Source of the DNA: Trypanosoma brucei | Taxonomy: Eukaryota | DNA length: 64,000 bases | Assembly: GCA_000002445.1 (NCBI GenBank) | Contig: CH464491.1 | Coordinates: 4,480,001-4,544,000 of the forward strand | Direction of reading: 5' to 3' | In this document: in pieces, positions 2 through 61,700 of the stretch | Layout of the letters: every line of letters starts with the position of its first letter | Numbering within the stretch: position 1 is the first letter of the stretch | The notes under the pieces: model-generated | What the model was told of the DNA's origin: nothing | What the model saw: the letters and a program-made list of their open reading frames with translations, nothing else | Databases searched by the model: none | Position numbers and translations under genes: made by a program

Positions 2-2110
2 CTCCAGAAAGACAGCATTGTTCCACAACGCTGTATGAAGAATAACGTGGCTGGCTATCAAGGGATATGAAACATCCAAAGGGCATTGTAACACTTTCCC
101 TCCAAAATGTATTTCACATAGCTCATGGTGGGAAGGGTAACAATAAATATTCACGGGCGACTTCTGCGGTCCGCACATATCCGTGCCAGGAGATGCTTGA
201 TCAAACCAACCTCGACAAGAAGTTGATATCATTCTCGTTGATTGCCTTGAAAGTGTTGTCCTTTTCCCCGTTGTGCAACAAAGAAAAAGTTCAACGCGCG
301 AAACACTGTCATAATATTTTGGGATAGAAGAAAGTGCCCGAACGAGGGTCTCGTCCCCCATGCTCAGGTTCTCAGTGAAAACAATTTGGTATCTCGAACA
401 GAATCGGTTTATCGCATCCCTCACCCATGAAGTAAACTTGTGAGAATTGCAAATTAGCTTTTCCGCAACTGCCTTGGGTTGTCTCAGAGCGTGACACCAA
501 AAAATACACTTTACGTCGAAAGGCGATAACTCAGGAAAACTGCTATCATACGGTAAACGGAAGCGATATGAAAGCGCCCGCCCGATGACACTCAACTGGT
601 ACGACGGCAACCCGTCACTGTTACGCAACTGCGACAGTAGTCCGAATGAGCACATAGCACTCATGACTTCGTCAAAAAACAAAGACGCGTCCATAGTAGC
701 AAAGAAACTCTCCGGTATGCGTAAAACTGGGCCTGTATCTTCCTTCCTACTTTCAAACCGAAAGCGTCTAAACAGCCATAACACAACATTCATCGCATCT
801 TGAAGGCAGTCATTACTAACACGTTCCGTGTCAACGAAGTTATTCTCGCTGCTACAATGGCCCGGATACGGTACATAGATTGTGTGGGGAAGTCGGTGAA
901 AAAGTGCCCGAATTATGTCCAGATCCTCTCCCCTATTTGACTCACCGAAAACAAGAAACTTTATATCCATATAACCAAAGCAACATTCGTGATGCGGTCT
1001 CAGAAACTCCCTTTCAATTTTCTTCTTGGAACAAAAAACCGTCAACGGTACACCATTGGCACGAGCTGCTAAAAGTTCAGGGAAGTGGTCTAAACTCGCC
1101 GCGATTGACATGGGCGACGAAGTGTAGCTATCGTGTAGGCATTGCTCCAACATGCTAACCAACGAATCCTCTTCAGGGATTATCAGCAATATGCACGAAG
1201 GGTTACTGTTTACACATTCCACTCCGGTGTCACACAATTCTTCGTGGCAGTTTGTAACAATTTCGGTCATTTTTTCGAGCCATGCCTCCTGGTTCGCAGT
1301 CGCAAACGAGTCTGTGAAGCAGTTCTCCATATTATTGGTCGATCCGGTGCTGGTATCCAGCTTGTTAACGACGCAAACTTTAAGTTTGCTTTCAATGAAC
1401 AGATAAATGTCATCTACAGTGGTACTCCGGACACAATCTTTAGAGAATTTTAATATTACCTTCACGTGACTTAGTCTCTCCTGGATACGATCGTTAGGGA
1501 ACGACGCAAAGTGATGGAGAAGCGATGAAATCGCTAACGCCCAAATGGAAAACATAAAACTCCCGTACGGAGCCCCCATGTGAAAATAAATATCAACGTC
1601 TGTCAAAACATACACGACATCATCGTTATCAGTGCCACCCAGAAGAAAAATAAGAAGTGACTGCCACATATGATCGATACCTTTAAGGTCTAGTGTTACG
1701 AAAATGCAGTGGGAGATCCTGCTCGCCTCCTCCGTTCTGTCACGACCCACCTCCTGTGACGATTCATTCAACTCAATAGCTATATAGCAACCGCCAGTGC
1801 AATCGTTACAGGCAATCCGATCCGCAGGAGACGCACAATGTAGGTATGGAATCAAGTCCATTATCCCAATGGGATCACCTGTGCTCGGGTTACCTCTCCT
1901 ATTAATTGTTCCTCTTTCCCCTGAAAGCAAATTGTGGAAACGAGTATTCTTGTCGGTATAATACGCCTCGCTGTCAATCCTTGACATCATCGATTGAGGG
2001 ATGCGGTGTAGCCTCGAAGATGTGAGCGCATCAAAAAAGGCACTGCATTCCAGTGGAAGACAGTAAGGAATATCACCGAAATAACCCGAAGCGACTTCGT
2101 TTAAATTCAT
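2..2110 (-). CDS. Partial large ORF (at least 703 codons, ATG at 2110, continues beyond the window start). Function unknown.
   Basis: Manual reverse-complement translation from the ATG at 2108-2110 (MNLNEVASGYFGDIPYCLPLEC...) reads without a stop down to position 2. The frame was checked at three points (nt 2110, 1321, 781, all in phase). It is absent from the ORF track because no stop lies in the window. Only short ORFs occur on the opposite strand here. No P-loop or other motif recognised. Confidence 0.5.
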   Translation of the reverse strand, partial: MNLNEVASGYFGDIPYCLPLECSAFFDALTSSRLHRIPQSMMSRIDSEAYYTDKNTRFHNLLSGERGTINRRGNPSTGDPIGIMDLIPYLHCASPADRIACNDCTGGCYIAIELNESSQEVGRDRTEEASRISHCIFVTLDLKGIDHMWQSLLIFLLGGTDNDDVVYVLTDVDIYFHMGAPYGSFMFSIWALAISSLLHHFASFPNDRIQERLSHVKVILKFSKDCVRSTTVDDIYLFIESKLKVCVVNKLDTSTGSTNNMENCFTDSFATANQEAWLEKMTEIVTNCHEELCDTGVECVNSNPSCILLIIPEEDSLVSMLEQCLHDSYTSSPMSIAASLDHFPELLAARANGVPLTVFCSKKKIEREFLRPHHECCFGYMDIKFLVFGESNRGEDLDIIRALFHRLPHTIYVPYPGHCSSENNFVDTERVSNDCLQDAMNVVLWLFRRFRFESRKEDTGPVLRIPESFFATMDASLFFDEVMSAMCSFGLLSQLRNSDGLPSYQLSVIGRALSYRFRLPYDSSFPELSPFDVKCIFWCHALRQPKAVAEKLICNSHKFTSWVRDAINRFCSRYQIVFTENLSMGDETLVRALSSIPKYYDSVSRVELFLCCTTGKRTTLSRQSTRMISTSCRGWFDQASPGTDMCGPQKSPVNIYCYPSHHELCEIHFGGKVLQCPLDVSYPLIASHVILHTALWNNAVFLE

Positions 2111-2547
2111 CTACCGCCAGTACTGAAATAGTGAAAGGGAGAACTTAAGAACGAAGTTAAAACAAAGATAAAACCACATATGTCACAGATTCATGGGAGA
2201 ATGCAAATTAGGTCACATTAACCTCCGCATATTTTTTTTGTGCTTTGGTTAAACATTGATCCCTCCCCCTATGCAACCACCACACCTCGGTAGATCAGAG
2301 GGACGGCAGAATGTAGAAGCAGACAATTTGGGTGAAATCAAACCACCCTCTAAAAAGTCCTGAAAGACCACCGCAGCCGACCAACACATCAGGTACTTCA
2401 CAACTTTTTCTTTAATTAACACGTTTAATTGTCGTTGTTGTTATTGCTGCTGGCGTCAACACAGCTCCAATAGGTACCTTTGCGGTTAAACATGGTCTAT
2501 GTTTCGCTTTGTTTTTTGCTTTCAACAAAACAAATTCGTTATTAGCG

Positions 2548-2573
2548 TGTGTGTGTGTGTGTGTGTGTGTGTA
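2548..2573. repeat. (GT)n microsatellite
   Basis: gtgtgtgtgtgtgtgtgtgtgtgt run seen directly. Confidence 0.9.
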
Positions 2574-2699
2574 TTTGTTTTCATATGGTCGGTCCCTGTT
2601 GATAAGGCTACATCGTTAAGCAGGGGAACAATGCTGCAAGCAGCACTTTACATGTACGAAAACGTTCCAACGCTTACACAGATACATACAAATAAAGAA

Positions 2700-3950
2700 A
2701 AAAGAAACCATCACAGAGGAATAACCCAACAGCATGTCACGCCCCAAAGCACAGGCACCCCGTCCCTGCCTTTTGATAAGTGAAAATGAACAAAGTTAAG
2801 AACGAGTATGGGAAGACGTCGGCACACAACATGGCAAAGCGGGAACCGGCCGTTGCACCGCTCGAACACATATGCGGCAGACGTCCACAATATCACGTCA
2901 TCACCGACGTACAAAACGAGGTCAGCGGCCGTGTGGCAGCCGCCCGCCGCGCAAGGCCGGCACAGACACGGCCAAAAAGTCCGGGCGGACGCAAGCACCC
3001 ACCTGCGAAAACCAAAGAGTCGGAAGGACACGCTCCCTCGCTCTTTCTTCCCCCCTCCCCCTTCGGTTCGACAGCGGCCCTCCGCTGGCAGCCGCGCGCC
3101 TCCGGACCACGGACGGCTTCTCCCGTAGAAAACTGTGGAATCTCACATCCCACCCCCACGTTAAAGCAAATTCCTTCTCTGTTGTGCGCACAGATCACAC
3201 ACACACCTTCCACATTTTCCTCGGCCGAAAATGCTGGCCGGGATTTCTGAGGGCCCTTGACCCACAGCGGCGGCACACTCGGCCAAGAAGTGCAAAGGAA
3301 GGGAGATGCAACGCGCAATAAATCGCTCTTTTCCCCCACACTCGTGCGGCACCACGCCTGCCTACCGCTTGCGTCGACGCGCCAGTCGCCGAACCATTGC
3401 GGCCATCTGGGATATGCGCAGGTGGTGGTGAGTCGGGCACTGGCATCGATGTCGAAGGGTTGGGGTGGCGTAGTCGGCGCGTTCAAGCTGATCTGGAGGA
3501 GCAACCTTGTACCTACAGACGTCTTCGGTGAGAAAGAGCGGCTAGTCGCTGTGGGGGACCCGTCGCCTCTACGCGAGGAAGTTTGGAATCCGGCACCTGG
3601 CCACTCCTTGCCGCCTCGTACCCGATATGGGGAAAATTGGCTGTTATGCTCTGCCCGCGGAACCAGCCGGTACGGGTTGTGTGGGTCTTCGGAACCTCGG
3701 GCAGTGTGAAGCTTGATTCGGATGCGCCCAGAAGCCCATGGAAACAGTACAGATCCGAACCTAGGCCTAGTCGCCGATTTCTTTTACGGAAGCCAGAGTA
3801 TTGTGGGAGGTCTTTTTCATTTCCGTTCGTTTCGAAGGCAAGCATTTGGGGGGGGGGGGGGGAAGAGATATCAGTTTTTTCCCCCATCACCGATGCAGTG
3901 CGCTGAATATCTTTGAGTTGGTTTTTAACGTTGACCTTCATTTCTGAGGT
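2700..3950. other. GC-rich island with all six frames open (overlapping ORFs on both strands); poly-G run at ~3843-3862.
   Basis: Multiple overlapping ORFs of 100-200 aa in every frame (2711-3941) imply a depletion of the A/T needed for stop codons. Visibly GC-rich sequence (ccgcgcaaggccggcac...). A poly-G homopolymer is present. Confidence 0.6.
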
Positions 3951-6499
3951 TCAAGAGCGGTAGCGACCTGGGACTCTTAGTAGATTTCTGTGTTACGTTC
4001 CATTTCCGGTACCGGTTCTCCCGGTACGTGAAGCCGGCTGGGGGATTATGTATTTTAGATGCAACAAGATTCGGAACCCTATATATTTTTTCTAAAATTA
4101 ATCATTCATGGGGAGAGATTGCTGCATTTTCTCCCTTCTTTAATTGGGTGAGAACACATAAAAAGTCATCAGGTCGTGCGACATTTTTTAACAAGTTATG
4201 TCTGACCGGTCACTACAAAGCAAGGTGGAGACTTGTGGCTCTTTCGAGCATACCCACGGCTACGCATTGGTAATGAGGGGTGAATACTAGCAAAGAGATT
4301 AGACATAAACCGCAGGGGAGTTCACCGTTAAGATTGTGCCGGCATGAATGTAACGCGTAGGACGCCACGCCGCTGTACGGACGATGCACGTGACTGTTAG
4401 GGGCTTTGAAAGAGATGTTTGCATCCTGAAACAGATTTCACGGCGAAAGAAAAAGAACTTCTTTTGTTAACATGCAAATTTACTTCGACACACTTGCTTC
4501 TGTGGTTAGTCGAAAGTGTGTGCTCTCAGGATTTAAGCAACACACATCATGTCACTGGTTGCTGCAATGTGGTCATAGCATTTGCATTTGCGACAAACGT
4601 ACTGAACAAAGAAATGCGCAGTGGTAGCGAAGAATTTACTTTTTGTCCATACCATGCTCAACTGTGCGTTCCGAAGTTTTTATACTTTCGTCATTACGCG
4701 ACGATGTGTCTCCATCATATCTAACGTCTCCCCCCTTTACACACTTGTGACAAGGAGGAAGAGCCGGCCAAGCCCCCAGCATGCGCACAAGGAAACCAAC
4801 TACTACTAAACAACGCATCGTGGACAAGCATGACAACAGTTCTCCGGACGAGGTGAGAAATATGGAAAGATTAAATTTATGAGTCGTGACTTATACACAG
4901 ACCTCGATAGTCGCAATGTCATTGTTTACTATTGTTGCATCCAATTTAGTAACATCACCTTTCTGTGGTTTATAGGCCGAGTGCTCTAGGCATAACAGAG
5001 GAGAACTTTATGTCCCTTAGAACACATTGTGGCCTCAGCTGACTTTCACTATTTAAAAACCTTCACTGCAGGAGGCATCTGTGTTTGCCGCGCGGATCGG
5101 CACTTCGCTGTGTCAACCCTCTTGATCACCGGAGCTTGGCACCGATTTCCCCATTGACCGGAAGCAACCTCCTGGATCTTCATTAGAAAGTAAGATATGG
5201 GTTGGCTGTCCCCAACATACGTTATGGGGGTGGGTCTCTGAAAGATTCGGAGTGCCACGCGGTGCCGCCCGAACATTCGTAAATGCAGATTTTACCACGA
5301 CTTCCGAACCAACTTCTCATCGCCCCTTTATTTGTATTCCCCTCTAGACAAGGAGTGGGTTCTTCAAAGGAATCGTATTGCGATTGATTCAGTCCCATTG
5401 CAACGTTGCGGGGCAGTTGCGTGAGAGGTCCTTCTCAGACCGCATGTCCCTGCCCACACAACGTTTGCTGGAAGAAATGTTTGTGAGGTACCCTAGGGGA
5501 ACATAGCCACCCAACTACTACTGCCCACACGCACAAACTCTATGTACAGTGCCGCCGCCGTGCTGGATACTCTTTAATCCATATACTGGAAGACTTTTTT
5601 TTTTTTAATGGTAGGGTTGTTATGCGCATGCGCCACTCTCACCGTAGATTGGTGCAGTACTTGGTCAGCGAGCTGATGGTGCGGTTAAAGTCCTTGACGT
5701 CATTTTTATCTGTTTAATCAACTTCCGGTAACATACCGTAATTTTTGAAGTACTTCTCTCTTGTGTTTGGTGGAAAATGCACTGTAGCTGGTGTCTGATG
5801 TAGGCACAGTCATTTCCGTAATACGCAGTGAGAACACACTTTTTACGAGAGGTGGTTGAAACCGACACGAGTTACCAACATAGTGCCATCAAACGGTCCT
5901 TCCTTTCGTGTTAATGTCAGTACAAATGCGAACTCCATCGCTACCAACGAGGGAACAAACAACACATAGATAACCCTTCGAACCGTGCCCGAGGTGACGC
6001 TCTGCTTATATTTTGGACCACAACATAAAGGCGGATGTGATGCCGCTGTGGCTTATGACGAGGTAAGCGATCAGGTCGCGTAGTGTTGTCAACGCTTCGT
6101 GTATCCTACAAAGCGACGTAACATAGCGCCCGAATCGTCACCACCATCAGTGGGAAACAAAGCAGCTGTTGGAAAAGTATAAGTCATTCTGGAGGTGTTG
6201 TGAACTCCCGTTGAAACCGAGTCAGGAACCATGAGTGGGAATGGACGCGAAAAGCAAAATTTTATGCACATTTTAGCCGAGCGTGGTCGTAAAACTATAT
6301 CACCTGGAATCGGAGATTCCACTGTCATAAAGGTGGATGTTGTCCAGTACATGTTGTTGAAACCTCGTGAACACTCGTCTTTGGTATTGTTGGGCCTTGT
6401 TGTAGAAGCAAGACAGCTGGGTCTATGACAGCCGGTTGTCTCAAGGCAATTTGAGCGGTTGAACACTGAAAGTCTCTGATGGTAGACTGTCTAACTCGA

Positions 6500-6960
6500 C
6501 TTCACTCACGGGAATGCTTCGACTGAAGAAGCTTCAAATCAGGGGCAACCTCGACAACAGCAACGGCGCTGGGGAAATATTTCGTATTGAAATGCTGAAA
6601 GAGATGGTGCCGACGTATAAAGAGGTGGGAATAATTGGAGAGGTGCGCCTCTCCCCGAACCCCACGATTCACAACTTGGAACAGACATCAGCAAATGACG
6701 ACTTCATAAAGTAACTTTCCGTATGGAAGAAACTATATGAAAGTTGACACTATCTGTGTCCCTAAAACTGGATAATGTCGAACAGCTGTCAAAGATTACA
6801 ACACTAAAGGGGTTGAGCCTTTCATGGTGCACTAATATTATACATGGGTGGGAAAGCAATGATAAACTTCCACAGCTCCGAGTTCTTTATTTGGAAGGGG
6901 GCGGCAAATATGCTGGGGGTGCAACCTATGAGAGGTATCAGCAACATGTTTAAATGTTAC
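6500..6960 (+). pseudogene. Possible degenerate leucine-rich-repeat protein (LRRP/ESAG8-like) remnant.
   Basis: ORFs 6514-6714 and 6744-6953 give LKKLQIRGNLDN... and LSKITTLKGLSLSWCTNIIHGW...LPQLRVLYLEG. This fits the L..L..L.LS.C..I LRR pattern of trypanosome LRRP/ESAG8. The region is fragmented across frames. Confidence 0.3.
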
Positions 6961-9919
6961 AGTGAGGGTAAGTGGGGCATACACAAAACTGACCGCGCGG
7001 AATTTGCCTTCCTGTGCTGTTATTATTTTTCCATTATCCCTCTTAACATGGTATGCGATCTCCTGCACCACGGAAGGAAACAACATATGCTACTGGGGTA
7101 AATGCCGACGCCTCAGAGGAGTATATCTTCTGCAGAGCTCAGCACAGGATCTGCAGACCCCCACGGCAGCGAAGGAGGCTGGCCGTCACACAGCAGCAGC
7201 CGTCTGCTCCTAAACGTTGTGGTAGGGCACGGAAGATTCATAAGACTAGCCACTGTTTGACTGACAAGAGCTTGAATGCGACGAGAAATGCTCCCGAGGT
7301 GCGCACGTCGCTGTGAGAAAAGTGATGCCAAAAGATTATTGCAACTCGCTGGTGATGGCACCAGCCCGATGCCTCAATTGTTTTACTGGAGTTTGTTTGG
7401 CAACGGGTGGCACTGGGAAAGAGCCACTGAATGCGTCTTTATGACACACAGACACGTTGCTGACGAGAAGGAAGCGGAAGCACTACCGAGTTTTCGTTTG
7501 GTAACACTTTGGATTAGTACATGATTCCAGTTGGCATAAGCGCTGGACCTCCAGAGGCGTGTTGGGGCCATGGTCATGACTAAGCGCACTGAGGGACAAA
7601 GCGTAGCAATGGTAGTAGGTCGGGAACAAAACGTCGATTGAGACTCCGTTAAGGATTGGTTAGTTGATCGGGACAGGAGGACAAGCAATGACGAACACCA
7701 CTGTTTTGCTTGTTGGTACAGAGAAACGCGACAACTAGCACAATATTCCAGGTTGGACTGCAGAACAAATTGGAAATTAGCAAAAAAAAAATGGCCGAGT
7801 GGCTGAATCAAATTACAAAGAGTGGCAGCCCAACTGCGTCGCAGAAAGGAGTAACGATGAACGGGAGGCAGAATGTTGTAATACAAAAGCAAGAACAGAA
7901 CGGGAAGCAGGCAATTAAAGCGCATCCGGGTCCAACAGCAAAGATCGTAGAGCCATGTCAATGAGGGTGCTAGAAGCCGAGAAAGACGTGCTGAAAAGGG
8001 GTGTTTCGGACAACCACGACCGTCTTCAAGAGAAATTTGAAGTGTGTGTTATCCGTCAGCATGTAATGAGGGGGGGCTGTTTCGCGATTTCCCGATCACA
8101 CGAGAGGAGTTGAATTTACGTGATGTTTCTGACCAGTCGTAACCGCGTCTTTGTGATCGCTGGTTTCCACGGCCTCTTTCAACTGATTTTTTTATTGTGT
8201 AGCCCACCGCAGTTTAATGGATTTTTTGTTGGAATCCATTGCACGTGCTATGGTGCGCTATGTCGTGGCTTGTGCTTTGTTATGTTTAGTTGGCGTTGTT
8301 GTTGTTGTTGTTCTTGTTCATAGGCTTCTTTCATGGCATGCAGTGACCTCGCACATTTGGTCTCAGATTTCATCCGTAGTAGTTCATCCTTTCGTTTCGA
8401 TAACCGAGTATTCCTTTGTTGTTGTTTTTTTTTTGAACGCTTTTACTTCTCATTTACTGTGTATTGCTGATCCAGCTCCCGCATGTCACTACACAGCTGC
8501 TCCGTAGCACCCCTCAGCTTTGACTTATACGCACGAACAACCCTTCCCTGTTGTCCTGCTGTTACAGTCACTGGGCATACAGAACGAAACAGCTTCTTAA
8601 CTCCACGCAAAATATTTGTTAGCTGTAAGTGCCCTCTGTCAAAGGGGACACAGACACAGTAATAACAGGCACTTCTTCGTTCGCTGCATAACCGGTTATG
8701 CGATGTCGTTGCGTTCCTGTTTGACGCTGCAAGAACGATTCCCTGTGGGGTTTTCCGATTGGTCACCTCATTAACGGTAACAGCGCGTGTGTCATGGACC
8801 GCAGTACCTGGACGTATTCGGAAAGGTCGTGGTAACGTCCTTGGCGCCCCACTTCATTTTTTACCGCTTTTCTTATGCATATCATCGCTTTCGGTGAATC
8901 GCGAACTGTTAGTGTACTTCTTGGAGATCGGTTAAGACCCATAGCTGTCCAGCAGGTCGTTTTGCTGCGTTCGGTGCCGAGATTTGCTTGGCAGGGATCA
9001 TTTTTCCAAAATGCAATACATAGGCTCACACACAGGTCCCGGTGATCGGCCTCTACAACCAATAACCTGCGACTGCTGAACTTCCTTGGAAAGTCTTCCG
9101 TATGCACCGTTAGCATCTCATATTTGCTTTTACTTTCGTAAGCGCTGAAAACAGAGCGATTTTCATTGGTGGTCTGCTCTGTAGCGCTTGCCTGCCAGGG
9201 AAGTTGAGATGACAAAATTAAATAGAGGTCCACATAGGTTTGGTATCCTTCACGCGATTCTTCAAGGATGTGTTGTTCCTTTCGTCTGCGGAGTGACGAC
9301 GGGAAAAGCGGAACTTGCTGCTGGAGAAACGTTGCAGTACGACACGTAAACTATTGTTTTTGCGAAATTCATAAATATGATTTCCACAAGGAGACAGGGA
9401 GTGCATCGTGTTGTGCTATGCAAAGGCGACAGGGCAATTATAAAAAACGTGCTGTCGCAACCAGTCAGCTTCCATCAATTTAACAGCGATGCAATAAGTG
9501 GATCTTGACTACCCCAGAGATGCGTATTGCGGTAAGGGGAACGTCACCCCCCCCCCCCGTACATCATTTTAACCGGTAGGGACGAGTAGTCTCATACCTT
9601 ACCTACAGTTGGAGGAGCTTTAAGCCGAAAATTTTCGACTTTTTTGAGGGTAGAAGCAAGCTCCCCAGGTTTCCCTCAAAAGCAGAAAGAGCATCCATCC
9701 TCGCTTTGATACACCGCATTGGGTGTTTTCCGTTTCTCGCTCCTTGGGCATACAGAGTGGCGGTTCCCCCGATGCTATCCTTTCCCCCCCCCCCCGCAAA
9801 AAAAAAAAAAAAATCTTTTGGGTTGCCCTTTCGGGCCCGCTCCGCCGCGGTAAACCTTTTACCGGCCGAAAACCCCGGGCAAAATGTTTTCCCTGACTGG
9901 GTGGCGGACCCCCGATCTT

Positions 9920-10019
9920 NNNNNNNNNNNNNNNNNNNNNNNNNNNNNNNNNNNNNNNNNNNNNNNNNNNNNNNNNNNNNNNNNNNNNNNNNNNNNNNNN
10001 NNNNNNNNNNNNNNNNNNN
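9920..10019. other. Assembly gap (100 N).
   Basis: Run of n characters. Confidence 1.
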
Positions 10020-10804
10020 TGACAATTGCGGCAGGACGATGAGCAGAAGTAACAACGCGACTGGAGCTCTCAATATCACGGGAAGTACGTCCATGGCGAC
10101 ACGACACACAGCTCCTCCCGTCGGAAGGGAATGTTCCCCGCCACTCGGTGCGAGTGAGGCATTGCGGTCGCTCAAGTGAAGCATATTCATCGCAGTGTCT
10201 TTGATAGTCTACGTGTAAAAGTGGTTGTCACACTGGAACAAATGAAAGGGAGGGGTTGGGCAAGAGTTGTTAGGTGAAACTGGGAACCACGTAACGCCAA
10301 GAACGTGATGCCCATATCGAGGGGAAAAAATATAAACGGTTGCACGCAACAAGCCATATTAAGATTTAAGGACGCCAACACACGCATCGTTCCATCAGAG
10401 CCAAACACACCAGTAACGTAGGCGCGAAACTGCGCTTGTTGTGTCAGAGGCGGCGGTCACAATGCACAAGACCACCCCACAACAGTACAGAACTCCCAAG
10501 GTATGCGCCGCGCGCGGTGGAGTGGACCATCGATAGGTAAAACAACAATGTACCATTAAGAGGTCAACGGTTCCTCCAATCACGGCGGATGTGCCGCCCC
10601 TTTGCCACTAATTGATTGGAGGAACGGGGGCGTATTTTTCGCGACACACGACCACTGCAAAGCGGCTGGAGACTTGACACAATCCGAAGGGCGCGTCAGC
10701 TGCGTCGCAACTGTGTGCACGCTTCTATACCCCTGGCATCGGCGACAAAGTATCCGCAGCCACAATAGCCACCAAAGAACCGCCTCTCCTTCCAGCTTAG
10801 ACAT
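10020..10804 (-). repeat. Left arm of an inverted repeat: inverted copy of the GRESAG4 5' flank plus its first ~57 codons.
   Basis: 10020-10190 is the exact reverse complement of 11738-11907. The 10782-10804 junction is the reverse complement of 11114-11136. Identical small ORFs are predicted on opposite strands (10187-10408(-) = 11520-11741(+), 10395-10583(-) = 11345-11533(+), 10580-10948(-) = 11124-11348(+)). Confidence 0.85.
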
Positions 10805-11113
10805 AGTAGGTGTCCGCCACACACACACACACAATCTCTTTTGTGTTTGCTCTTTTCGTGCCCCGCTCCGCGCGGGTAAACCACTTTCAGCGGCCGGAGA
10901 ACTCCCGTGCGAAAATGTTTTCTCACCTGACTCGGTGTGTGCTGACACTCCGAGTCACTTCGCAGGTAAGGGAGTCATACGCCCTCTGGAACGGGTGAAC
11001 CAGTTCCAGTAGGATAGCACTATCCTTGATCAATGGCACCGCGTAAATGCTGCATCACTACCGAAAGCAAGTAAGAAGGCATATGACCCCGTTTCGCGCC
11101 GGTTCGTCCACCC

Positions 11114-11907
11114 GACACCTACTATGTCTAAGCTGGAAGGAGAGGCGGTTCTTTGGTGGCTATTGTGGCTGCGGATACTTTGTCGCCGATGCCAGGGGTA
11201 TAGAAGCGTGCACACAGTTGCGACGCAGCTGACGCGCCCTTCGGATTGTGTCAAGTCTCCAGCCGCTTTGCAGTGGTCGTGTGTCGCGAAAAATACGCCC
11301 CCGTTCCTCCAATCAATTAGTGGCAAAGGGGCGGCACATCCGCCGTGATTGGAGGAACCGTTGACCTCTTAATGGTACATTGTTGTTTTACCTATCGATG
11401 GTCCACTCCACCGCGCGCGGCGCATACCTTGGGAGTTCTGTACTGTTGTGGGGTGGTCTTGTGCATTGTGACCGCCGCCTCTGACACAACAAGCGCAGTT
11501 TCGCGCCTACGTTACTGGTGTGTTTGGCTCTGATGGAACGATGCGTGTGTTGGCGTCCTTAAATCTTAATATGGCTTGTTGCGTGCAACCGTTTATATTT
11601 TTTCCCCTCGATATGGGCATCACGTTCTTGGCGTTACGTGGTTCCCAGTTTCACCTAACAACTCTTGCCCAACCCCTCCCTTTCATTTGTTCCAGTGTGA
11701 CAACCACTTTTACACGTAGACTATCAAAGACACTGCGATGAATATGCTTCACTTGAGCGACCGCAATGCCTCACTCGCACCGAGTGGCGGGGAACATTCC
11801 CTTCCGACGGGAGGAGCTGTGTGTCGTGTCGCCATGGACGTACTTCCCGTGATATTGAGAGCTCCAGTCGCGTTGTTACTTCTGCTCATCGTCCTGCCGC
11901 AATTGTC
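11114..11907 (+). repeat. Right arm of the inverted repeat (the native 5' flank and start of GRESAG4). The spacer 10805-11113 carries a (CA)n tract.
   Basis: See left arm. Arms are about 790 bp and the unique spacer about 309 bp. Confidence 0.85.
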
Positions 11908-14900
11908 AGTGGGCGCCGAGGCTAATGCGACAGTCAAGGTTCTCTCCGCCGCGTGGAACTCGTACATGCCGCAGGAGTATGTGACCGCGATCAATGCTGG
12001 CTTCAGTGCCTCACTAGAGTCACGACAATGGACTGTGGCTGGAAGCGTGAAAGTTGAGGTAGTTTATCCAGAGCGGTACGAAACACTACCCGAAGATTTC
12101 ATTAAAGAGCAGTTGGAATTGGAAACGGACCAGAATAAGATTGTTATAGTGTATGGACCCCTCGGTGACAAAAGCGTAATATACTCGATCCCGTATCTGG
12201 TGAATCACAGCGTAGTGGCCTTAGGGTTGATGACCGGCTCCGGGGAGGTGCGGCGGTGGAATCCGTACCTTTACTTTCTGCGTGCCGACCCCGCTGCTGA
12301 AACATTGGCTCTCATTCGGTATGCTCTATGCCAGTTGCGCGTGCTGCGCTTGGGTTTTATGTACCTTCAGGGTGTTCATTATGGCGACGAGGAGTATGCA
12401 TTGACAGTGAACGTGATGTCTCAGATGGGTTATGAGCTGCATGGTGTGTTCACCGTGATGAGTCCAGACGGTGAGCCTGCTCCTGATGATGAGTTCAAAG
12501 AGGCGTTCGAGCGTTTCGCCGCCGCCCTTCCTCAGGCCATCATTGTCTTTGGTGCGCCAGAAAAGGATACTGCGAAGTTCTTGATGATGATGGTAGCGGA
12601 GGAGCGCGTTGCTCGGTCTTATATTCTTGGTCCATCATCCGTCCAGGTGTCACTTGCAGAAATGTGGCGACTCGCTCTGGAAGCTGCAGGGGCCTCATTC
12701 GCGCCCGGGCAGCTACTTTTCACAGGCACCAATCCGCTTGCGAAGGACAGCCAGTACATAGCAATCAAGCGTTTTCAAGGAGTTATGAGTGAATACCTGA
12801 AAGCTCACGTCGGCGAAACCAACATCACTGAAACAGATTATTTCCTGACCCACGATCCTGAGGGAGAGTTGATGGTGTATGGGTGGATTGCTGGGGAGGT
12901 ATTGACCCAGGCACTTAGTAGTCTTGAATGGCTCAAGGACCGCGCTACGTTTGTCAGGTCGCTATACAGCCAACGGCGCTACGTCATCAATGACATTGTG
13001 ATCGGTGATTATGGCGGTACGTGTGAGGGGGAGGCGGCCAAGCATGGCGCCACCTGTGAGTGTAACCAAGGCAGTAAGGCGGTGTATGTGAAAGAGGTGT
13101 TGGAGGATGGCCGGACGACGACGATGGCGAGTGGATTCACGGTGGTGAAAGCTTCGCAGTGCTATGCTGAATCTTCGGAGCTTCACGGGCCACTGAATGG
13201 ACTCGCCGTTTTCATGGAAGACGACGACACCGCGTCGAAGGCAGCTGCGCTGTGGCACAAGGGGGCCTCCCATCTTGTCGGCAAGGGTGATTTGGGACAC
13301 TCGGACAGGTTCTTTCTGCACGCATTTAATACTACCATAGCTGAGGCAGCGAACGATCTTCGGCATGAACAAGGTGAAAGAATCGTAACCGCTGTGTTTG
13401 GCCCCGTGACCGAGGCGATGTTGGACACGCCGAATATAACCTTTATCGATCCCCTGGAACTCAAACCACGGCTGAATAAGTTCAGAAGGAATGTGATTCA
13501 TCTCTCGCCCACCCTGGAACAACAACTTTACGTTCTTTCATCGTACCTCGCAGGCGACGGGGTCGGCACTGTTGATGCCGTGATCTGCAGCAACGAAGCG
13601 GATGGGATTGCAGATTTTCTGCGGAGGTCACTAACTGAGTTCGGTGTCTCGCTACGTTCCGCTGTCATACGTGAGGATGGGGAAGGTGTTGGTAAATACC
13701 TTCCGATGAGTGGGATCGTGTTTGTCATTGGTCTTTCCGTTCCAGATGTGAGGGAAATCGCGAGGAAACTTGAGGAACGTAACGATTTGCGTGTGATTGT
13801 TCTCTTCGCGGAGTTTTCGTTACTGTATGATCTGTTTACTTCGACCCTCAACAACACCGCAGGCGCCGCGCGTCTTGTGTTTGCCACCAGCTTGCCACAT
13901 TGGGGTGATACTGAAACCTCATCGAAGACTACTCAACTGTTCCATGATGTCGAAAAAGACTCACGATTGTGGACACCCCTATCACTTCTGGCATTCGCAA
14001 CCGGTCGATTGATGCGGGCAATACTTCTTCGTGTAGAAGAAATGAGTCCAGAAACGTTGGTAAATTTCTTCTATGCCGATTCTTCCATCATCTCTGATGA
14101 CATGCGGTACGGTGTCTTCGACGACACAAAGTGCGACGGCGCAGAGAACATTTCGGAGGGTGATTGTGCCTCGAACTATGGCGCAACGCAGATATCCGTG
14201 TGGTCTATGGCCCGTGCTCTCAACGCCTCCATTCTTCCACTTACAAATCCCATGACACCGTCAATGAGCTTCAGAGACCCTAGCGAAGGAAAACTCTCCG
14301 GGGCACCGCTGGTGGGCGTCATCATCGGTGCTACCTTTGCTTTGTTTCTTGTGGTGGCTCTGGGCGTGGTTCCATACTTTGTCCTGCGCAACACCCGTGA
14401 TAACAACAGCGCGCCAAAGGAACCCACAGAGCCTGTGACAATTGTTTTCACAGATATTGAAAGCAGCACGGCACAGTGGGCTGCCCACCCCGATGTCATG
14501 GCTGATGCTGTCGCCGCACACCACAAGTTGATCCGCGCGCTGATCTCCCAGTACGAGTGTTACGAGGTGAAGACCGTTGGGGACTCGTTCATGATCGCGA
14601 GCCGAAGTGCGTTTATGGCGGTGCAACTTGTGCGGGATCTGCAGAGGGCGTTCCTTCGCCACAACTGGGGCGCGTCCGTGTTTGACGAGTATTATTGCAG
14701 ACTTGAGCAGGACCGTGCGTTAGAAAGTGAGGGATACGTGCCGCCAACCGCACGCCTGGACCCCGACGTGTACCGAAAGTTGTGGAATGGCCTCCGAGTG
14801 CGAGTTGGTGTGCACACCGGATTGTGTGACATTCGCCACGATGAGGTGACAAAGGGTTACGACTACTATGGTCATACGTCGAACATGGCTGCCCGCACAG

Positions 14901-15499
14901 AGAGCGCTGCGAATGGTGGACAGATATTGCTGACACGTGCAACATACCTTTCGCTAAGCACAGCGGAGCGTGAGCAACTTGACGTCACTGCGCTGGGCGC
15001 CGTCCCACTGCGTGGCGTTCCCGATCCGGTGGAAATGTACCAAGTTGATGCTGTGGTCGGTCGGTCCTTCGCTGCACTGCGCCTCGACAGGGAGGTCGAT
15101 CTGGTCGCAGATAGTGGGGTAACAAACCTATCCACCAGCGACTGCGCGTCCTTATGTGAGTTGGGTCAGTCAGCACAGACGATAGTGGCAGTCATGCGCG
15201 CACTTTTCGGCACTTTTACAGCATCACAGCGGGAAAAGTTGTTAGTGCCCTTCTGCGAGCGTTGGCGTGTGACGCTACCACCCAAAACGAAGTCCGTGTG
15301 GGATGATAACTACTGTCAGGAGGTTGTGCGGCGTATAGCAGCAAAAGTGGGACACGTCGTTGACTTCACGGCTTACAACATCGCTGAGCCCCCCCTCACA
15401 ACGTCAAGCAGCTCGTCCGTCATATTCATTTCCGACGCCGCCGTGGGTTTGTGCGCAGTGGGAGAACGAAATGTCTCAACCCCAAAGGAGGAAAACTGA
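11738..15499 (+). CDS. GRESAG4: Receptor-type adenylate cyclase, GRESAG4/ESAG4 family (1253 aa, intact).
   Basis: Single 1253-aa ORF with an N-terminal signal peptide (VLPVILRAPVALLLLLIVLPQLS). It has a large extracellular domain, a single TM helix (LVGVIIGATFALFLVVALGVVPYFVL), and a class III cyclase catalytic domain (VTIVFTDIESSTAQWAAHPDVMADAVAAHHKLIRALISQYECYEVKTVGDSFMIASRS ... RVRVGVHTGLCDIRHDEVTKGYDYYGHTSNMAARTESAANGGQILLTRATY). It sits outside an expression-site context, hence GRESAG4 rather than ESAG4. Confidence 0.9.
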   Translation: MNMLHLSDRNASLAPSGGEHSLPTGGAVCRVAMDVLPVILRAPVALLLLLIVLPQLSVGAEANATVKVLSAAWNSYMPQEYVTAINAGFSASLESRQWTVAGSVKVEVVYPERYETLPEDFIKEQLELETDQNKIVIVYGPLGDKSVIYSIPYLVNHSVVALGLMTGSGEVRRWNPYLYFLRADPAAETLALIRYALCQLRVLRLGFMYLQGVHYGDEEYALTVNVMSQMGYELHGVFTVMSPDGEPAPDDEFKEAFERFAAALPQAIIVFGAPEKDTAKFLMMMVAEERVARSYILGPSSVQVSLAEMWRLALEAAGASFAPGQLLFTGTNPLAKDSQYIAIKRFQGVMSEYLKAHVGETNITETDYFLTHDPEGELMVYGWIAGEVLTQALSSLEWLKDRATFVRSLYSQRRYVINDIVIGDYGGTCEGEAAKHGATCECNQGSKAVYVKEVLEDGRTTTMASGFTVVKASQCYAESSELHGPLNGLAVFMEDDDTASKAAALWHKGASHLVGKGDLGHSDRFFLHAFNTTIAEAANDLRHEQGERIVTAVFGPVTEAMLDTPNITFIDPLELKPRLNKFRRNVIHLSPTLEQQLYVLSSYLAGDGVGTVDAVICSNEADGIADFLRRSLTEFGVSLRSAVIREDGEGVGKYLPMSGIVFVIGLSVPDVREIARKLEERNDLRVIVLFAEFSLLYDLFTSTLNNTAGAARLVFATSLPHWGDTETSSKTTQLFHDVEKDSRLWTPLSLLAFATGRLMRAILLRVEEMSPETLVNFFYADSSIISDDMRYGVFDDTKCDGAENISEGDCASNYGATQISVWSMARALNASILPLTNPMTPSMSFRDPSEGKLSGAPLVGVIIGATFALFLVVALGVVPYFVLRNTRDNNSAPKEPTEPVTIVFTDIESSTAQWAAHPDVMADAVAAHHKLIRALISQYECYEVKTVGDSFMIASRSAFMAVQLVRDLQRAFLRHNWGASVFDEYYCRLEQDRALESEGYVPPTARLDPDVYRKLWNGLRVRVGVHTGLCDIRHDEVTKGYDYYGHTSNMAARTESAANGGQILLTRATYLSLSTAEREQLDVTALGAVPLRGVPDPVEMYQVDAVVGRSFAALRLDREVDLVADSGVTNLSTSDCASLCELGQSAQTIVAVMRALFGTFTASQREKLLVPFCERWRVTLPPKTKSVWDDNYCQEVVRRIAAKVGHVVDFTAYNIAEPPLTTSSSSSVIFISDAAVGLCAVGERNVSTPKEEN

Positions 15500-18400
15500 G
15501 GGTCGTAGGCATGCGCCATTTTTTAATGTGACGGTAAATGTTAGCGAAAGTTCTTTTAAATTTGACTTCTTTTTTTTTTTCATTCCATGGCTTATAACCG
15601 CATGTAGACATACAGTCGTGGGCACTTTCCTTCTGGCTTCGTCACTTGAGCGCGTATATCTTACAGCTAAAATGCTTTCGTTGTTACTTTTGTTATCGTC
15701 TGGGGATATAGCATCAACACCTCTATGGAGGTTACCGTATAAGCATATTGATATGGTGACTAACCACACGCACTATATGCCCCTTTTTGATTTTTCCCGT
15801 TGGCTTTTATGAGTTTTGTTCCGGGATGAACAAGCACTACCAAAATAAATGGAAATAGTGTTTTGCCTTTAATTCTTCCCATTGGGTGTTATTATTATTA
15901 TTTTTTTCGCATATATTAAATAAAACAGTCTTTGATCGTAGACAGTTCTCAGAAACAGTGAACTTACATTATAACCACCTTTCGTATGTTGTGTTTTGTC
16001 GTAATGTTGAAAAGTCTTCCTCCGTCAAACATGAATGTCTTTCTTACTCCTCCAACGCTAATAGTGCCTACTCAATTTTGAATTGAGGCGCCTGCTCCCC
16101 CACAAGGGTCCTTGGCATGACGAAAAAAAAAAAAGCGTACGCATTGCAGTGTGTTCAACTCGTGAATTTACGAATATTCGATGTTACGCCTCTATTCTTC
16201 TCATGTTGGTTTTCTCATTCCAAGGTGGCCTGAGCATTTGTTTCCGGCCATGGCACCACGTTGCGCCCATATAAACCGCCCTCCAGAGACCCTGTTTTGC
16301 CAGCGCGCTGTGGCTCTGCGTAATGCGGCTTGACGGCTCGCTTACTTAACTGAATCCCTGCATCATTTCTCCATCCCCTTGCTTGTGTTTCCCAACCCCC
16401 TGTTGTTTTGCTGCACACTTTCCTCCCTATTTCTACATTCCACAAGGGTCCCAAGTGTGTGTATGTGTGTACGTGTATGTTGTTGTTGTTTTGGCGACAG
16501 CAATCCCAGTGCTTACGCACGCACAACTATGCTAAGAACACCCGTGGCGGGAACTCTGTCACAACAGCCACACACAAATAAAAAAAAACTCGCAACCTAG
16601 TTGAGATTATCACAGAGGCAATGTTGCCGCTTTGCCGTGGAGCATTCAGGGAGGTTCGGGGTACAGAATGTGCGGCCCTTTAACATTAATAGTAGCGAGG
16701 CGGTAGACGGAGTAGCTGAGTTGCGTGAGCCCTAAGCGCCACGGGCCCCAGCGCAGAATATACAACAGAGAGCGAAGCTGATGTATTTTTCCCTCTTGGT
16801 GATGCACAATCCGTATTCTCGTGTCGTGAACTCTTGTGACATGCGAGCGGGCGATGGTGCTTCGTGTCCTGAACCATCTCTAAAGGGCTCGGCTGGATGC
16901 TTTTGGATGTGTTTTCATCCCTCAATGCTCCGCGACAAATATCTAAACCTATTCCCCACGCTGTGTGTGTGTGGGGGGGGGGGGGAGATCAACTTGCTCT
17001 CGATTGATGTGTGAAACGGACCACTCTCGGAATGTGCACAAGCAGAGCGACGAGTCGCTGTATGAAAAAAATAAAATAAAATAACCCAAACCCGTGAAAC
17101 TGTCAACCGGATCCGCACCAGTTGAGTTTGGGAAAAGTTGGAGTTGGGCGCAACCTGCCGAGTGGCACATCGCTTTACGGGATATCGCTGCTGCATGGAG
17201 GAAAATATGATTAGTGCAACCGTCGCAACACCCGCGGCGTCAGCAACCCCGCATGGTTCGGTACGGCCACCGCCACCCGACCTTAACTGAGCCGTCGCCT
17301 TGTTTGTTTTTTTTTTTTTAGCGGGAACGCGTAAAGAGTTTGAACCCGGTGGCCTCTGAATCTGCGGGGAATTATTTCTCCCATCGATGGCGTCATAGCG
17401 AGAGCGCCAACAATAATGAGGAACTTAACAGAACGGACGTGGTGCGCACAGTGCGGAAGCCCTAATGGGAATAATCGCCGTCACGTTGGGAAGGTGACTG
17501 ACGCTGCTAAATATGAATGTGCTCAGCAGGCATTAGAGAAAATATCAGCGTGAAGTGCAGGCGTTCGCCGCCGTGTGGTATCGAATTCAAGATGTTAAGC
17601 TGAGAAAGTTGGATGACACTTCGGGCGCCGTCACCATTTTATGGGAAGAAGAGAGAGAGAGAGATCGGTGGCAATGCGTCAGAACCACAATATTACCGAG
17701 CAGTAAGGGGCGAAATGCAATGCATAAAATACATTGAACATATTAACTGATAGAACTAAAGGACATATAAAAGTGCGGAGGTAAAAAGGCATTGCTCAAC
17801 AGCATCACGTCCATTTCGCCGATGCTGAGACGCCGTCCCACCCTCAGTCTTTACATATTTCGTCACACGTGTAGCGGACTGACCCCAGCGCGTATCCAAG
17901 TGAATGTGCCGATGCGGGCGCGCGCTGTACAATAAATGCCGCGCTGACAGGAACGAATCAGAAGGTGCTGCTGGCCTTAAAGCTTCAGCACATCGCAAAT
18001 GTATAAACAATAACGCTGCGGGAGCAATGAAATGGAAGTGTAATGGAATATGCATTACGTTTTACACCTTTTCGGAAGCATATGTGCGCTGGTGGCGCAT
18101 CCTTGCTCACATTCGTCCCGCATCAAATGGGATCACTCTGAAAATAAAGAGAGATACGACCACGTTTCCGCATGGGCGTATCGGTATGGCTGTTCGACTC
18201 AACGCATCTCCGCCGAAAGCATACAAAAAAAAATAAAACGATGGAGACGCCGTATTTTCGAGTATGAACGAGTCCACGGTGGCAGCGGCGGGACCTGAAC
18301 CCACAGTGGTGGTGGTGGGGGGGGGGTGTGAGGACGTTGCTCCGTAATCATTTTCTAATGTGAAATGTAATTCGGTCACCCCTCATATGCAAAGGTGTCG

Positions 18401-19055
18401 GGTACATGTAAGGTAGCCAAACGCAATTGTGCTGCATGAATGGTGAAGAGTATTTAAAACGGTAGCTGAAGGCATTGATTTTTAAAAAAACAAAAAAAAC
18501 AGAGACCTCATCGGTGCTTTGTCTGGAGTATTGCCATTTGGAATGAAAACGGGCACATAAAAACCCCCTGTGGGGAACTTTAAATCCTAGAAAAGGGCAA
18601 TCAGAAGGTGAATGTAATGAAAGTCCACTGAGAGCGGGAGGCACTCGGGACGCAAAATGCCACCTCATGTTACCATGCCTGAGGTGTCGCTTTACCTCGA
18701 AACAGAAAGACAAGGAAACTATGACCAGGAAAAGGTGGAACCGCATCATACAAGAACCCTTCGCAAATAAGGCAGTGCTGACGGTGTGTCGGCATCAGGA
18801 GCACAGACCGAATCAAGAGCGTTACCGCAACCCAAACATAAGTGGAGCGATGGCATCAAAACAGCGTCTTGCCACTTGCAAATTGCTTGGGAGTGGAAAG
18901 GCAGACGCACACCACTGAGGGTCGAGGTTACTCAAACCCCGCACACGTGGCAAAATACACAAATGAAAAAATCATTGTCTGGTGAATGAAGTCGCTTCAG
19001 CACGTCTGGCGCACGTTCCGCGGCACTCAAAAGTTTCGTATTTGAAGCCTCAAAA

Positions 19056-19148
19056 GGTTAGGGTTAGGGAGATGTGTAAAATCAAGGCTGCAGAGGGCCC
19101 TGATCGGTTATGAAGTCGTGCCCGAAGAACCCTAACACCAACCCTAAT
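19056..19148. repeat. Head-to-head telomere-hexamer relic: (TTAGGG)2 at 19056-19070, then ~58 bp, then CCCTAA-type repeats at 19129-19148.
   Basis: ggttagggttaggga and ccctaacaccaaccctaatca read directly. Confidence 0.7.
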
Positions 19149-20102
19149 CATAATGATCGTCTCTGTAACCCTCAGTGCTATAGAAAGATGCGTCCGCGCA
19201 CACGGCAGCACAAACACATGTCAATTGAGGTCTACAACGAAAACTCGCTGCTCAACTCAAGAAAACAAACTTTAAAAACAAAGAGCTATGAAGCAATATG
19301 CGGCGCTCAACCCTCGCGCATCCGCCCTTACAATATGCCACCAAAACGTGAGTTCAAGGAAATGGCCTACCAACAAAAGAGAAGCAACAGACAGCACCCA
19401 AGTGAGCGGTAAACACTAAGAAAAAAGGAAACATTTTCAACCCAGCAGACGTGGCGTCAGCCCGACCGACACGCATGTCGCCTCCTCATCAAGCATGCAA
19501 AAATACACCGCCCCCGTCACCACCATCACTGCCACAATAACTCCAGTCACAAAAATAAAAAAACCTACTAAGAATAACATCACGCTCCTTAACAGAAAAG
19601 ACGATACAACGCCTCAACGGCACCTTCAACAATAGGGAACAGCATATACATTCTTCCATAGGTCCACTGAAACTCACGCCTACTAAGCATTATTGATGGC
19701 AACCCACTTAAACCACCATCTTCCGCAAGTTCCCATATATGTTTCGGCACCTGCACAGAAAAGCAACACAAGAGCACATGTCTTTCTCGCAACGCGTAAT
19801 ATTGCATGTATAATTGCACAGTATGCAACCAAAAATATACATATATGTTTTGCATGTATGTGTTTCTATATGCCGTTTGACATGGGAGATGAGGGATGCT
19901 ATACATAGTTCTGTTATTTTCTAACACGTATGTGTGTTAGAGTGTCTGTGTTAATATACTTTTTAATACATGCTCTACATAATATACAGTAGTAATAACA
20001 CAGAGAATACGTATGGAATGCGTATCTCTCTATATATATTTATGTATATATGCTATGTGTATATCAACCTCGCATATTTTCTCCCTGTTGACCATGGCTC
20101 CC

Positions 20103-25300: not shown

Positions 25301-25458
25301 ACAGCTGCCGACCGTTATTTCACACGCAGATAAAGCCTGTGTGCGCTGATGACCCTGACGATGTCAAAAGAGAGGCTTCCGAAAAGTGGATTGCACGGCA
25401 TTTTGCACGGAGGGGGATAGGAGCCACCGCGGCGAGAGCACTACGAATTGTAGACTGA
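22324..25458 (+). pseudogene. ingi ORF fragment 1: 2A-like peptide, AP-endonuclease and reverse-transcriptase domains.
   Basis: 1044-aa ORF with the motifs above. A full ingi ORF (~1650 aa) is interrupted here by frame changes at ~25460 and ~26540-26670. Confidence 0.8.
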
Positions 25459-25465
25459 TGGATCC

Positions 25466-26533: not shown

Positions 26534-26671
26534 CAAGGAGATGGTAGAGCCCCAGCAGCGCCAGCCTCTCAGGATACACGGAAGCTGCCGTTTCAATGTG
26601 ACCTGTGCGAGGCGAGCTTCGGTACACGTTCTTCCCTGTCACTACACAAGAAATTCAAACATAAGAGCATA

Positions 26672-29904: not shown

Positions 29905-29933
29905 TGTATATAAACACACTCATAACACTCTCC

Positions 29934-30015
<82 letters not shown>

Positions 30016-30819: not shown

Positions 30820-30862
<43 letters not shown>

Positions 30863-52867: not shown

Positions 52868-52905
52868 AGATAGTATTGTGAGTGTGTATATACTAATATT
52901 ATGGG
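52868..52905 (+). repeat. 70-bp-repeat core.
   Basis: gtattgtgagtgtgtatatactaatattatgggaac. Confidence 0.65.

Positions 52906-61269: not shown

Positions 61270-61700
<431 letters not shown>

Follow-up and report, generated by a model that had tools for sequence, protein, structure and literature searches.

Upstream of a receptor-type adenylate cyclase gene of Trypanosoma brucei, two complementary arms flank a short spacer, and the outer arm begins at a run of Ns. The locus raises the question of whether the chromosome contains a genuine palindrome at this point or whether the end of a contig has been misassembled. The analysis covers a window of 64 kb (the whole stretch of DNA studied) and supports the second reading. 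Very probably, two overlapping contigs were left unmerged at a homopolymer and microsatellite, and a chimeric fold-back (clone or read) lengthened the right contig at its left end; about 1,019 nt of the deposited sequence (9797-10815) would then be spurious.

The window is part of chromosome 11 of T. b. brucei TREU927, and its cyclase protein exactly matches EAN80648.1 from the 5,261,801-bp record. The product is 1253 amino acids long and identical to the TREU927 entries XP_829760.1 and Q380Y3; its GenBank name is 'expression site-associated gene (ESAG) protein, putative'. It shares 98% identity with the DAL972 orthologue, 81-83% with ESAG4 proteins and about 49% with GRESAG4 proteins. The gene had been labelled GRESAG4 in an earlier note on this DNA. 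Its assignment as an adenylate cyclase stands, but the label needs refinement as the protein is closer to bona fide expression-site ESAG4 than to typical GRESAG4. The protein cluster that contains the cyclase has three members only. A paralogue (P0002) is found on chromosome 10, and the gene upstream of the cyclase encodes an 857-amino acid protein (P0056). The locus lies at the boundary between chromosome core and subtelomere; an ingi element and VSG arrays are found downstream of the ESAG4-like gene.

The duplicated region had also been described as promoter-proximal, which is a misnomer on established knowledge. Protein-coding genes of trypanosomes are transcribed polycistronically; to our knowledge, individual genes have no promoters of their own. 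A scan of the sequence for bacterial promoters and terminators found nothing above chance; a scan of this type is irrelevant to a trypanosome.

The inverted repeat itself is real in the deposited sequence. Its arms are 795 nt each, 100% complementary and 299 nt apart (Table 1). Exact reverse-complement arms and a (CA)n tract in the spacer had both been noted correctly, the latter being (CA)8 at 10818-10833. The limits first given for the arms (10020-10804 and 11114-11907) need correction, the left arm having been stopped about 10 nt short on its inner side, and the spacer is not the 309 bp first given. As noted before, the left arm lies directly against the 100-N gap, its first base following the last N. 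The right arm consists of 624 nt of 5' flank and, counting from the annotated ATG, the first 57 codons of the cyclase gene, which agrees with the earlier count. A second ATG at 11834 lies directly before the signal peptide; from this start, the arm covers 25 codons. Within the arm there are also a polypyrimidine tract and an AG (11694-11695) that probably serves as the trans-splice acceptor. The pair is the sole long inverted repeat of unique sequence within the 64-kb window. The remaining inverted pairs are arms of simple TAA-rich repeats, and the two further gaps of the window show no similar inverted structure.

Table 1. Features around the inverted repeat (positions in the window).
Feature	Position	Strand	Basis or remark
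False ORF running into the gap, mimics an N-terminal cyclase fragment	9603-10190	-	apparently created by the copy judged spurious
C12 homopolymer, last reliable bases of the left contig	9784..9795	+	DAL972 has C9GCC(CA)7 there
Degraded read tail (probable), right end of the left contig	9797..9919	+	low-quality same-orientation duplicate of 10816-10948
100-N scaffold gap	9920..10019	.	N run; DAL972 continuous here
Left arm, inverted copy of 11114-11908, extreme left end of the right contig	10020..10814	-	100% reverse complement of right arm
Junction-spanning ORF	10580-10948	-	
Junction-spanning ORF	10602-11012	+	
Spacer, intergenic, upstream of the cyclase gene, starts CGC(CA)8	10815..11113	+	98.7% identical to DAL972, collinear
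Right arm, 5' flank 11114-11737 plus 57 annotated codons	11114..11908	+	97.1% identical to DAL972, collinear orientation
ESAG4-like receptor-type adenylate cyclase gene	11738..15499	+	Pfam PF25495, PF25493, PF00211; exact protein match

Of the other genomes compared, the one that covers the junction is that of T. b. gambiense DAL972, which belongs to another subspecies. It was sequenced and assembled independently, from pUC19 and BAC clones with Phrap and Gap4 (PMC2854126), and the orthologous locus (L001) contains no Ns. Window positions 711-9903 correspond to L001 1-9190 at 98.4% identity, and 10820-19672 to L001 9073-17934 at 98.2%; in DAL972 coordinates, the two contigs of the window overlap by about 118 nt. 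The DAL972 locus is collinear across the window gap and has a single, non-inverted copy of the 5' flank. The only DAL972 match of the left arm is the reverse of this single-copy flank (L001 9367-10171), and no inverted repeats longer than 21 nt were found in L001 7000-13000. On the sequence evidence the spacer and the right arm are genuine, and the left arm is judged to be spurious. The T. equiperdum OVI contigs contain no more of the cyclase than a C-terminal fragment, on a 1.5-kb contig (L002) that stops short of the junction, while the contig with the upstream gene (L003) ends 1.7 kb from that gene, far from the junction. No long-read reassembly of TREU927 came up in a search of the literature.

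The left contig is informative about the order of the locus. It passes from unique upstream sequence into C12, (CA)n and then spacer, for about 123 nt. Aligned to 10700-11113, the tail (9797-9919) scores 82, compared with 16.8 +/- 2.2 for 500 shuffles (z = 29.5); it is 73% identical to 10816-10948. This bears out the earlier suggestion that the left contig ends in a noisy copy of the spacer start. The alignment of 9796-9919 with 10816-10948 contains 15 substitutions and 27 gap columns, and twice as many bases are missing from the tail (18) as are extra (9). Seven of the substitutions are C to A within (CA)8; the A16 tract at 9798-9813 is (CA)8 with every C called A and its length unchanged. 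Such an error profile resembles the unresolved end of a capillary read and suggests that the tail is one.

The error-rich zone was originally drawn from 9540 to 9919, and this extent is not borne out. Identity to DAL972 is 98.4% over 9540-9783, matching the preceding 9 kb, and falls abruptly to 73.5% over 9784-9919, at the homopolymer. Of the homopolymers taken for errors, A16 alone appears to be an artefact; the C12 runs at 9547-9558 and 9784-9795 are matched by C-rich tracts in DAL972 (C5AC6 and C9GCC, respectively). Since the tail enters the spacer directly from unique upstream sequence, it contradicts the junction between left arm and spacer. It also follows that the two contigs overlap and that the gap is not real; the alignment indicates a spurious 100-N gap and a negative true distance between the contigs.

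In the right contig, the order is inverted arm, CC, GC(CA)8 and spacer. Microhomology at the junction (10814|10815) is at most 1 nt, as the C at 10814 alone is common to both partners. Chromosomal end joining in T. brucei typically uses microhomologies of 5-20 bp (MMEJ), and NHEJ has not been found (PMC3045614); the junction does not carry the MMEJ signature. Two routes to the join were considered and rejected. Firstly, fold-back priming by microhomology fails as the 3' end, ...GTGGCG, has no match beside 11113. Secondly, a spurious assembler overlap between the two ends of the spacer fails as these ends are not similar. The junction falls in the C12/(CA)8 tract, where read quality also collapses; this tract is a plausible polymerase-stalling site both in vivo and in vitro. 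There is no second junction within contiguous sequence. The left arm ends exactly at the contig end, and its outer limit is not a biological boundary.

Of the two readings offered by the earlier note, the chimeric or misassembled contig end is therefore favoured, on the collinear DAL972 locus with its single flank, the overlapping contigs, the arm that stops at a contig end and the near absence of microhomology. The anomaly abuts a gap, the contigs are collinear and overlapping in an independent assembly, and the conflicting left contig supports the simple order. The true locus would run from unique upstream sequence (to about 9796) through the C-tract, (CA)8 and spacer (from about 10816) to the 5' flank and the cyclase gene, which is the T. 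b. gambiense order. Reads entering C12/(CA)8 from the left would have degraded, leaving a 123-nt low-quality tail on the left contig. The assembler would then have been unable to merge this tail with its high-quality counterpart in the right contig, and 100 Ns would have been inserted between overlapping contigs at the scaffolding step. With no good read across the true join, a chimeric clone or read, produced by fold-back or strand switching and with sequence from 11114 onward attached in reverse to a fragment end at 10815, may have extended the right contig leftward. The outcome would be one read-length (795 nt) of inverted sequence ending where the contig does. A point against this account is that the left arm matches the right arm at 100% identity up to its last base, without a low-quality tail; it was therefore not simply the far end of one poor read. 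We infer that a chimeric clone or read was the origin of the inverted piece, and that it arose in vitro or in the cloning host.

This explanation can be compared with artefacts of known kinds. The locus resembles contig-end artefacts of capillary shotgun drafts (of the Phrap/Gap4 era) in several respects: a low-quality single-read tail at a contig end; a conventional 100-N gap between overlapping contigs; a break at a homopolymer and dinucleotide repeat; and odd sequence that is limited to the last read-length and is missing from the independent assembly of a close relative. It differs in that the joined piece is not a random part of the genome but the adjacent 0.8 kb, in reverse. A reversed neighbour points to intramolecular fold-back or strand switching rather than to co-ligation of unrelated fragments.

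Polymerase fold-back (inverted) chimeras arise during library construction or amplification, for example in multiple displacement amplification, and usually carry a few bases of microhomology. The locus is similar to these in having an inverted nearby copy after a skipped 'loop' of 299 nt and a junction where a polymerase would be likely to stall. It is dissimilar in its microhomology of at most 1 nt, and there is no evidence of amplification in the TREU927 library. A literature search on fold-back library artefacts found nothing specific to capillary libraries. No single in-vitro mechanism has a near-neighbour chimera without microhomology as its most typical product, and this is a counterpoint to the artefact reading.

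A real fold-back inverted duplication in TREU927, carried by one homologue of chromosome 11 or by some of the sequenced population, is improbable but merits consideration. According to this explanation, a break or stalled fork at C12/(CA)8 would have caused the nascent strand to turn back and copy from 11114 outward; the normal homologue would be the source of the left contig's tail, and the rearranged one that of the right contig's end. Chromosomes 1 and 9-11 of TREU927 were sequenced by shotgun with capillary reads and with both homologues as template (PMC2854126). With the homologues of chromosome 11 mixed in this way, a structural variant on one of them would also give a break with two conflicting continuations. 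The position at the core/subtelomere boundary, the homopolymer and microsatellite at the junction, and arms that are 100% identical without a low-quality end are consistent with a real event. The duplication is absent from DAL972; as a member of another subspecies, DAL972 is compatible with an event specific to TREU927. Against a real event, the outer boundary of the arm is merely a contig end with no second junction seen, and the microhomology falls short of that typical of T. brucei end joining. A dicentric or acentric palindromic chromosome would also be expected, neither of which should be stable.

Inverted duplications have parallels in T. brucei and in related parasites. The minichromosomes of T. 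brucei have palindromic cores of 177-bp satellite repeats. They resemble the present locus as a large palindrome of the same genome, but the sequence here is unique and lies on megabase chromosome 11. In Leishmania, linear amplicons arise under drug selection when inverted repeats that already exist rearrange in an MRE11-dependent manner (PMC4256157). These are similar in that a kinetoplastid carries a gene-containing segment in inverted duplication, and they lend some support to a real event. However, the Leishmania amplicons need inverted repeats to be present beforehand; the ancestral T. brucei locus has none, and it shows one junction only, at a contig end. The relevance to gene amplification or fork stalling that was proposed for the palindrome is not supported and is considered improbable. 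If the fold-back were real, it would be a rare case of natural palindrome formation at a homopolymer and microsatellite in a trypanosome, starting 0.9 kb upstream of an ESAG4-like cyclase gene, where the core of the chromosome meets a VSG subtelomere. It would then offer a snapshot of a break-induced palindrome at a natural replication obstacle, formed without the microhomology usual in T. brucei.

An error made purely in computation or finishing, without any chimeric molecule, is very unlikely. An example would be a minus-strand read from the gene start that was misjoined by the assembler or during hand editing. In length the arm is close to one capillary read and it starts where a clone-end read could start, and the junction lies inside the low-quality zone without microhomology; both fit such an error. 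A join of this type requires an overlap, however, and the continuation of the read (GGGTGGACGAACC...) is not similar to CGCCACACAC... This explanation differs from the favoured one in route only, and the verdict on the sequence is the same.

Finally, it is scarcely credible that the whole scaffold is real in cis (with 9797-9919 as a diverged second spacer start, unknown sequence in the gap and a real inverted arm): the deposited scaffold does show that order, but no single rearrangement yields a direct spacer duplicate with an inverted arm between the copies, identity drops sharply and precisely at C12, from 98.4% to 73%, the 27 gap columns and the C to A changes by which (CA)8 becomes A16 at equal length suggest base-calling rather than divergence, and the sequence is single copy in DAL972.

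With the artefact as the favoured explanation, the biological importance of the finding is low; its value is practical. Some 1,019 nt (9797-10815) should come out of the TREU927 reference, and their deletion closes, on paper, one of the few gaps left in it. Owing to the spurious 795-nt copy, three parts of the cyclase locus are no longer unique: the intergenic region 5' of the gene, its probable splice-acceptor site and its first 57 codons. As a result, short reads from this region (RNA-seq, spliced-leader mapping, ChIP-seq and ribosome profiling) map to more than one position and are often discarded. This affects the strain that serves as the annotation reference for African trypanosomes.

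The stretches at 10020-10814 and 11114-11908 form a perfect inverted repeat, with arms of 795 nt that are 100% complementary and 299 nt between them. An earlier note had described this repeat largely correctly; its arm coordinates were close, except that it let the left arm stop about 10 nt too early on the inner side, which made the spacer 309 nt. The spacer starts with CGC(CA)8, and the right arm consists of the 5' flank (11114-11737) and first 57 codons of a receptor-type adenylate cyclase gene. The left arm directly follows a run of 100 Ns, and its outer edge is a contig end only; its length would correspond to about one capillary read. There are three such runs, and the window is therefore a scaffold of contigs. 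No second long inverted repeat of unique sequence is present within the 64-kb window.

Features of the window and identity to related sequences (DAL972 locus: FN554974.1, 4513676-4531609)
Feature	Window	Strand	DAL972 locus	Identity or domains
Left contig match	711-9903		1-9190	98.4%
First 100-N run	9920-10019
Left arm match	10020-10814	reverse orientation only	9367-10171	97.1%
Right contig match	10820-19672		9073-17934	98.2%
Receptor-type adenylate cyclase ORF, 1253 codons	11738-15499	+		PF25495, PF25493, PF00211
Cyclase protein vs T. b. gambiense DAL972 orthologue				98%
Cyclase protein vs bona fide ESAG4 proteins				81-83%
Cyclase protein vs typical GRESAG4 proteins				about 49%
Ingi-type retroelement ORFs	22324-26533	+		reverse transcriptase, endonuclease, RNase H
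Direct-orientation element (~0.4-0.9 kb), copy 1	28079-28898
Direct-orientation element, copy 2	33489-34190
Direct-orientation element, copy 3	49289-50189
Second 100-N run	30103-30202
VSG_B ORF	54374-55156
Third 100-N run	56781-56880
VSG_B ORF	59505-60917

TREU927 chromosomes 1 and 9-11 were assembled by shotgun from capillary reads that include both homologues; the DAL972 genome is an independent assembly of pUC19 and BAC paired-end capillary reads (Phrap and Gap4), with its contigs ordered afterwards against the 927 reference (PMC2854126). DAL972 is the only other genome that spans the junction; contigs of T. equiperdum OVI end before it. The orthologous DAL972 locus contains zero Ns. The left and right window contigs are collinear on it and overlap by ~118 nt, and the left arm has no separate counterpart; the 5' flank in DAL972 is therefore single-copy and non-inverted. 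Inverted repeats at 7000-13000 of this locus do not exceed 21 nt.

Three-way alignment and identity counts show that good sequence in the left contig reaches about 9796. The whole of 9540-9919 had been regarded as error-rich; this does not apply to 9540-9783, which is 98.4% identical to DAL972, as are the 9 kb before it. Identity falls from the second of two C12 runs, whose DAL972 counterparts are C5AC6 and C9GCC. Past this run it is 73.5% to DAL972 and 73.0% to window 10800-10960. The resemblance of the sequence before the gap to a copy of the spacer, also claimed earlier, is real: the tail (9797-9919) aligns to the spacer start with a score of 82 (shuffles 16.8 +/- 2.2; z = 29.5). The left contig itself therefore reads from upstream sequence into the spacer. 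Seven of the 15 substitutions in the tail are C to A changes within the dinucleotide repeat, so (CA)8 shows as A16 of equal length; 18 bases are missing and 9 are extra. The tail is probably the unresolved end of a capillary read past a homopolymer, not divergence. The left contig has the DAL972 order (upstream sequence, C-tract, (CA)n, spacer); this contradicts the right contig, in which that C-tract remnant and (CA)8 come after the inverted arm.

The chimeric junction reads ...ATAGTAGGTGTC / CGCCACACAC..., the natural reverse strand of the flank ...GGTGTC / GGGTGGACG... and the natural upstream sequence ...CCCCCCCCC / GCCACACAC...; the two junction partners have just one base in common, the C at 10814. 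Chromosomal end joining in T. brucei is reported to be exclusively microhomology-mediated, typically over 5-20 bp, and NHEJ was not observed (PMC3045614). The junction does not look like a product of such repair. No short inverted match able to prime a fold-back was found near 11113.

The inverted arm is very probably a contig-end assembly artefact, in which overlapping contigs were left unmerged and one received a chimeric extension. The contigs, although truly overlapping, would not have been merged owing to the loss of read quality at the C12/(CA)8 tract, and the scaffolder would then have separated them by 100 Ns. The right contig was probably extended at its left end by a chimeric clone or read of fold-back or strand-switch origin, with no good-quality sequence to contradict it at a low-coverage spot. 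Of the two readings in the earlier note, a chimeric or misassembled contig end thus holds, given the collinearity of DAL972 and its one copy of the flank, the contig overlap, the arm ending at the gap and the lack of microhomology at the junction. In the corrected sequence, about 9796 is in all likelihood followed directly by about 10816. What lies between, 9797-10815, is most probably spurious (1,019 nt: 123-nt tail, 100 Ns, 795-nt arm and 1 nt).

The other reading, a genuine palindrome, is not favoured. A real fold-back duplication in TREU927, carried by one homologue or by a subpopulation, is improbable. In its favour are the mixing of both homologues in the chromosome 11 shotgun (PMC2854126), the position of the locus next to the subtelomere, a junction where stalling is plausible and the absence of a low-quality end from the left arm. 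Against it, the structure is absent in DAL972, a second junction and microhomology are both missing, and the product is expected to be unstable. In addition, Leishmania inverted amplicons arise at pre-existing inverted repeats (PMC4256157), which are absent at this locus. Less probable still is a purely computational or manual mis-join involving no chimeric molecule, as there is no overlap to justify joining; the verdict would be the same as for the contig-end artefact, and the route alone differs. That the whole scaffold is real and in cis is extremely unlikely: it would take a rearrangement in several steps, and the pattern of errors in 9797-9919 also speaks against it.

The cyclase product is identical in every residue to EAN80648.1 / XP_829760.1 / Q380Y3 of T. 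b. brucei TREU927, named 'expression site-associated gene (ESAG) protein, putative', which places the window on TREU927 chromosome 11. The signal peptide is immediately preceded by a second ATG, at 11834. With its greater identity to ESAG4 than to GRESAG4 proteins, the cyclase is a chromosome-internal copy of the ESAG4-like kind. On the 3' side follow an ingi-type retroelement and then VSG genes, and the cyclase locus is the core/subtelomere boundary. Three successive (+) ORFs (endonuclease and reverse transcriptase; RNase H; a third part) occupy 22324-27421, with the cyclase gene on one side and the VSG arrays on the other; together they look like one ingi-type non-LTR retroelement whose reading frame has been fragmented. 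In DAL972, the chromosome 11 record stops ~4.2 kb beyond the cyclase stop codon (locus position 17934, window 19672), before the ingi element and VSG arrays present in TREU927. The orthologue of this cyclase gene is the last annotated on the assembled DAL972 chromosome 11, and thus marks the edge of the conserved core.

On the 5' side, a conserved 857-aa gene (EAN80646.1) starts at 2110 on the minus strand, ~9.6 kb (2110-11737) from the divergent cyclase gene. This interval contains no convincing conserved ORF, and DAL972 annotation there consists of only two ~110-aa hypotheticals; it includes homopolymers G15 (3848-3862), T12 (5595-5606) and A10 (7782-7791). Its arrangement is that of a divergent strand-switch region, the kind of site at which Pol II transcription starts in trypanosomes. 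The cyclase gene, which lacks its own promoter, may therefore have a transcription start zone upstream of it.

Around the second gap extends a long repeat tract, TAA/TTA-rich and of AGTATT type (29897-31250), with dozens of copies phased at 9-15 nt; it resembles the 70-bp-type repeats that precede VSG genes. A smaller inverted-orientation copy occurs at 61373-61639. The three-copy element sits in the VSG-array part of the window; 28119-28536 and 49329-49746 are 99.5% identical, and other pairs 72-94%. At the third gap, the right-hand contig opens exactly at the start of a 4-kb segment (within 56781-60910), which is 92.9% identical overall to 51418-55458; identity is 100% over the first 300 nt and then drops to about 75%. 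The two look like a tandem pair of VSG-containing units, and a repeat boundary that was collapsed or wrongly joined may be hidden by the gap.

The false arm makes the cyclase 5' end non-unique for read mapping. It also creates a false minus-strand ORF (9603-10190), which starts with the cyclase N-terminus (MNMLHLSDRNASL...LPQLS) and extends across the N gap as far as the left contig; an annotation pipeline could label it a gene fragment or pseudogene. The locus has no biologically new content; in practical terms, a widely used reference carries a gap that can be removed and 1 kb of false sequence.
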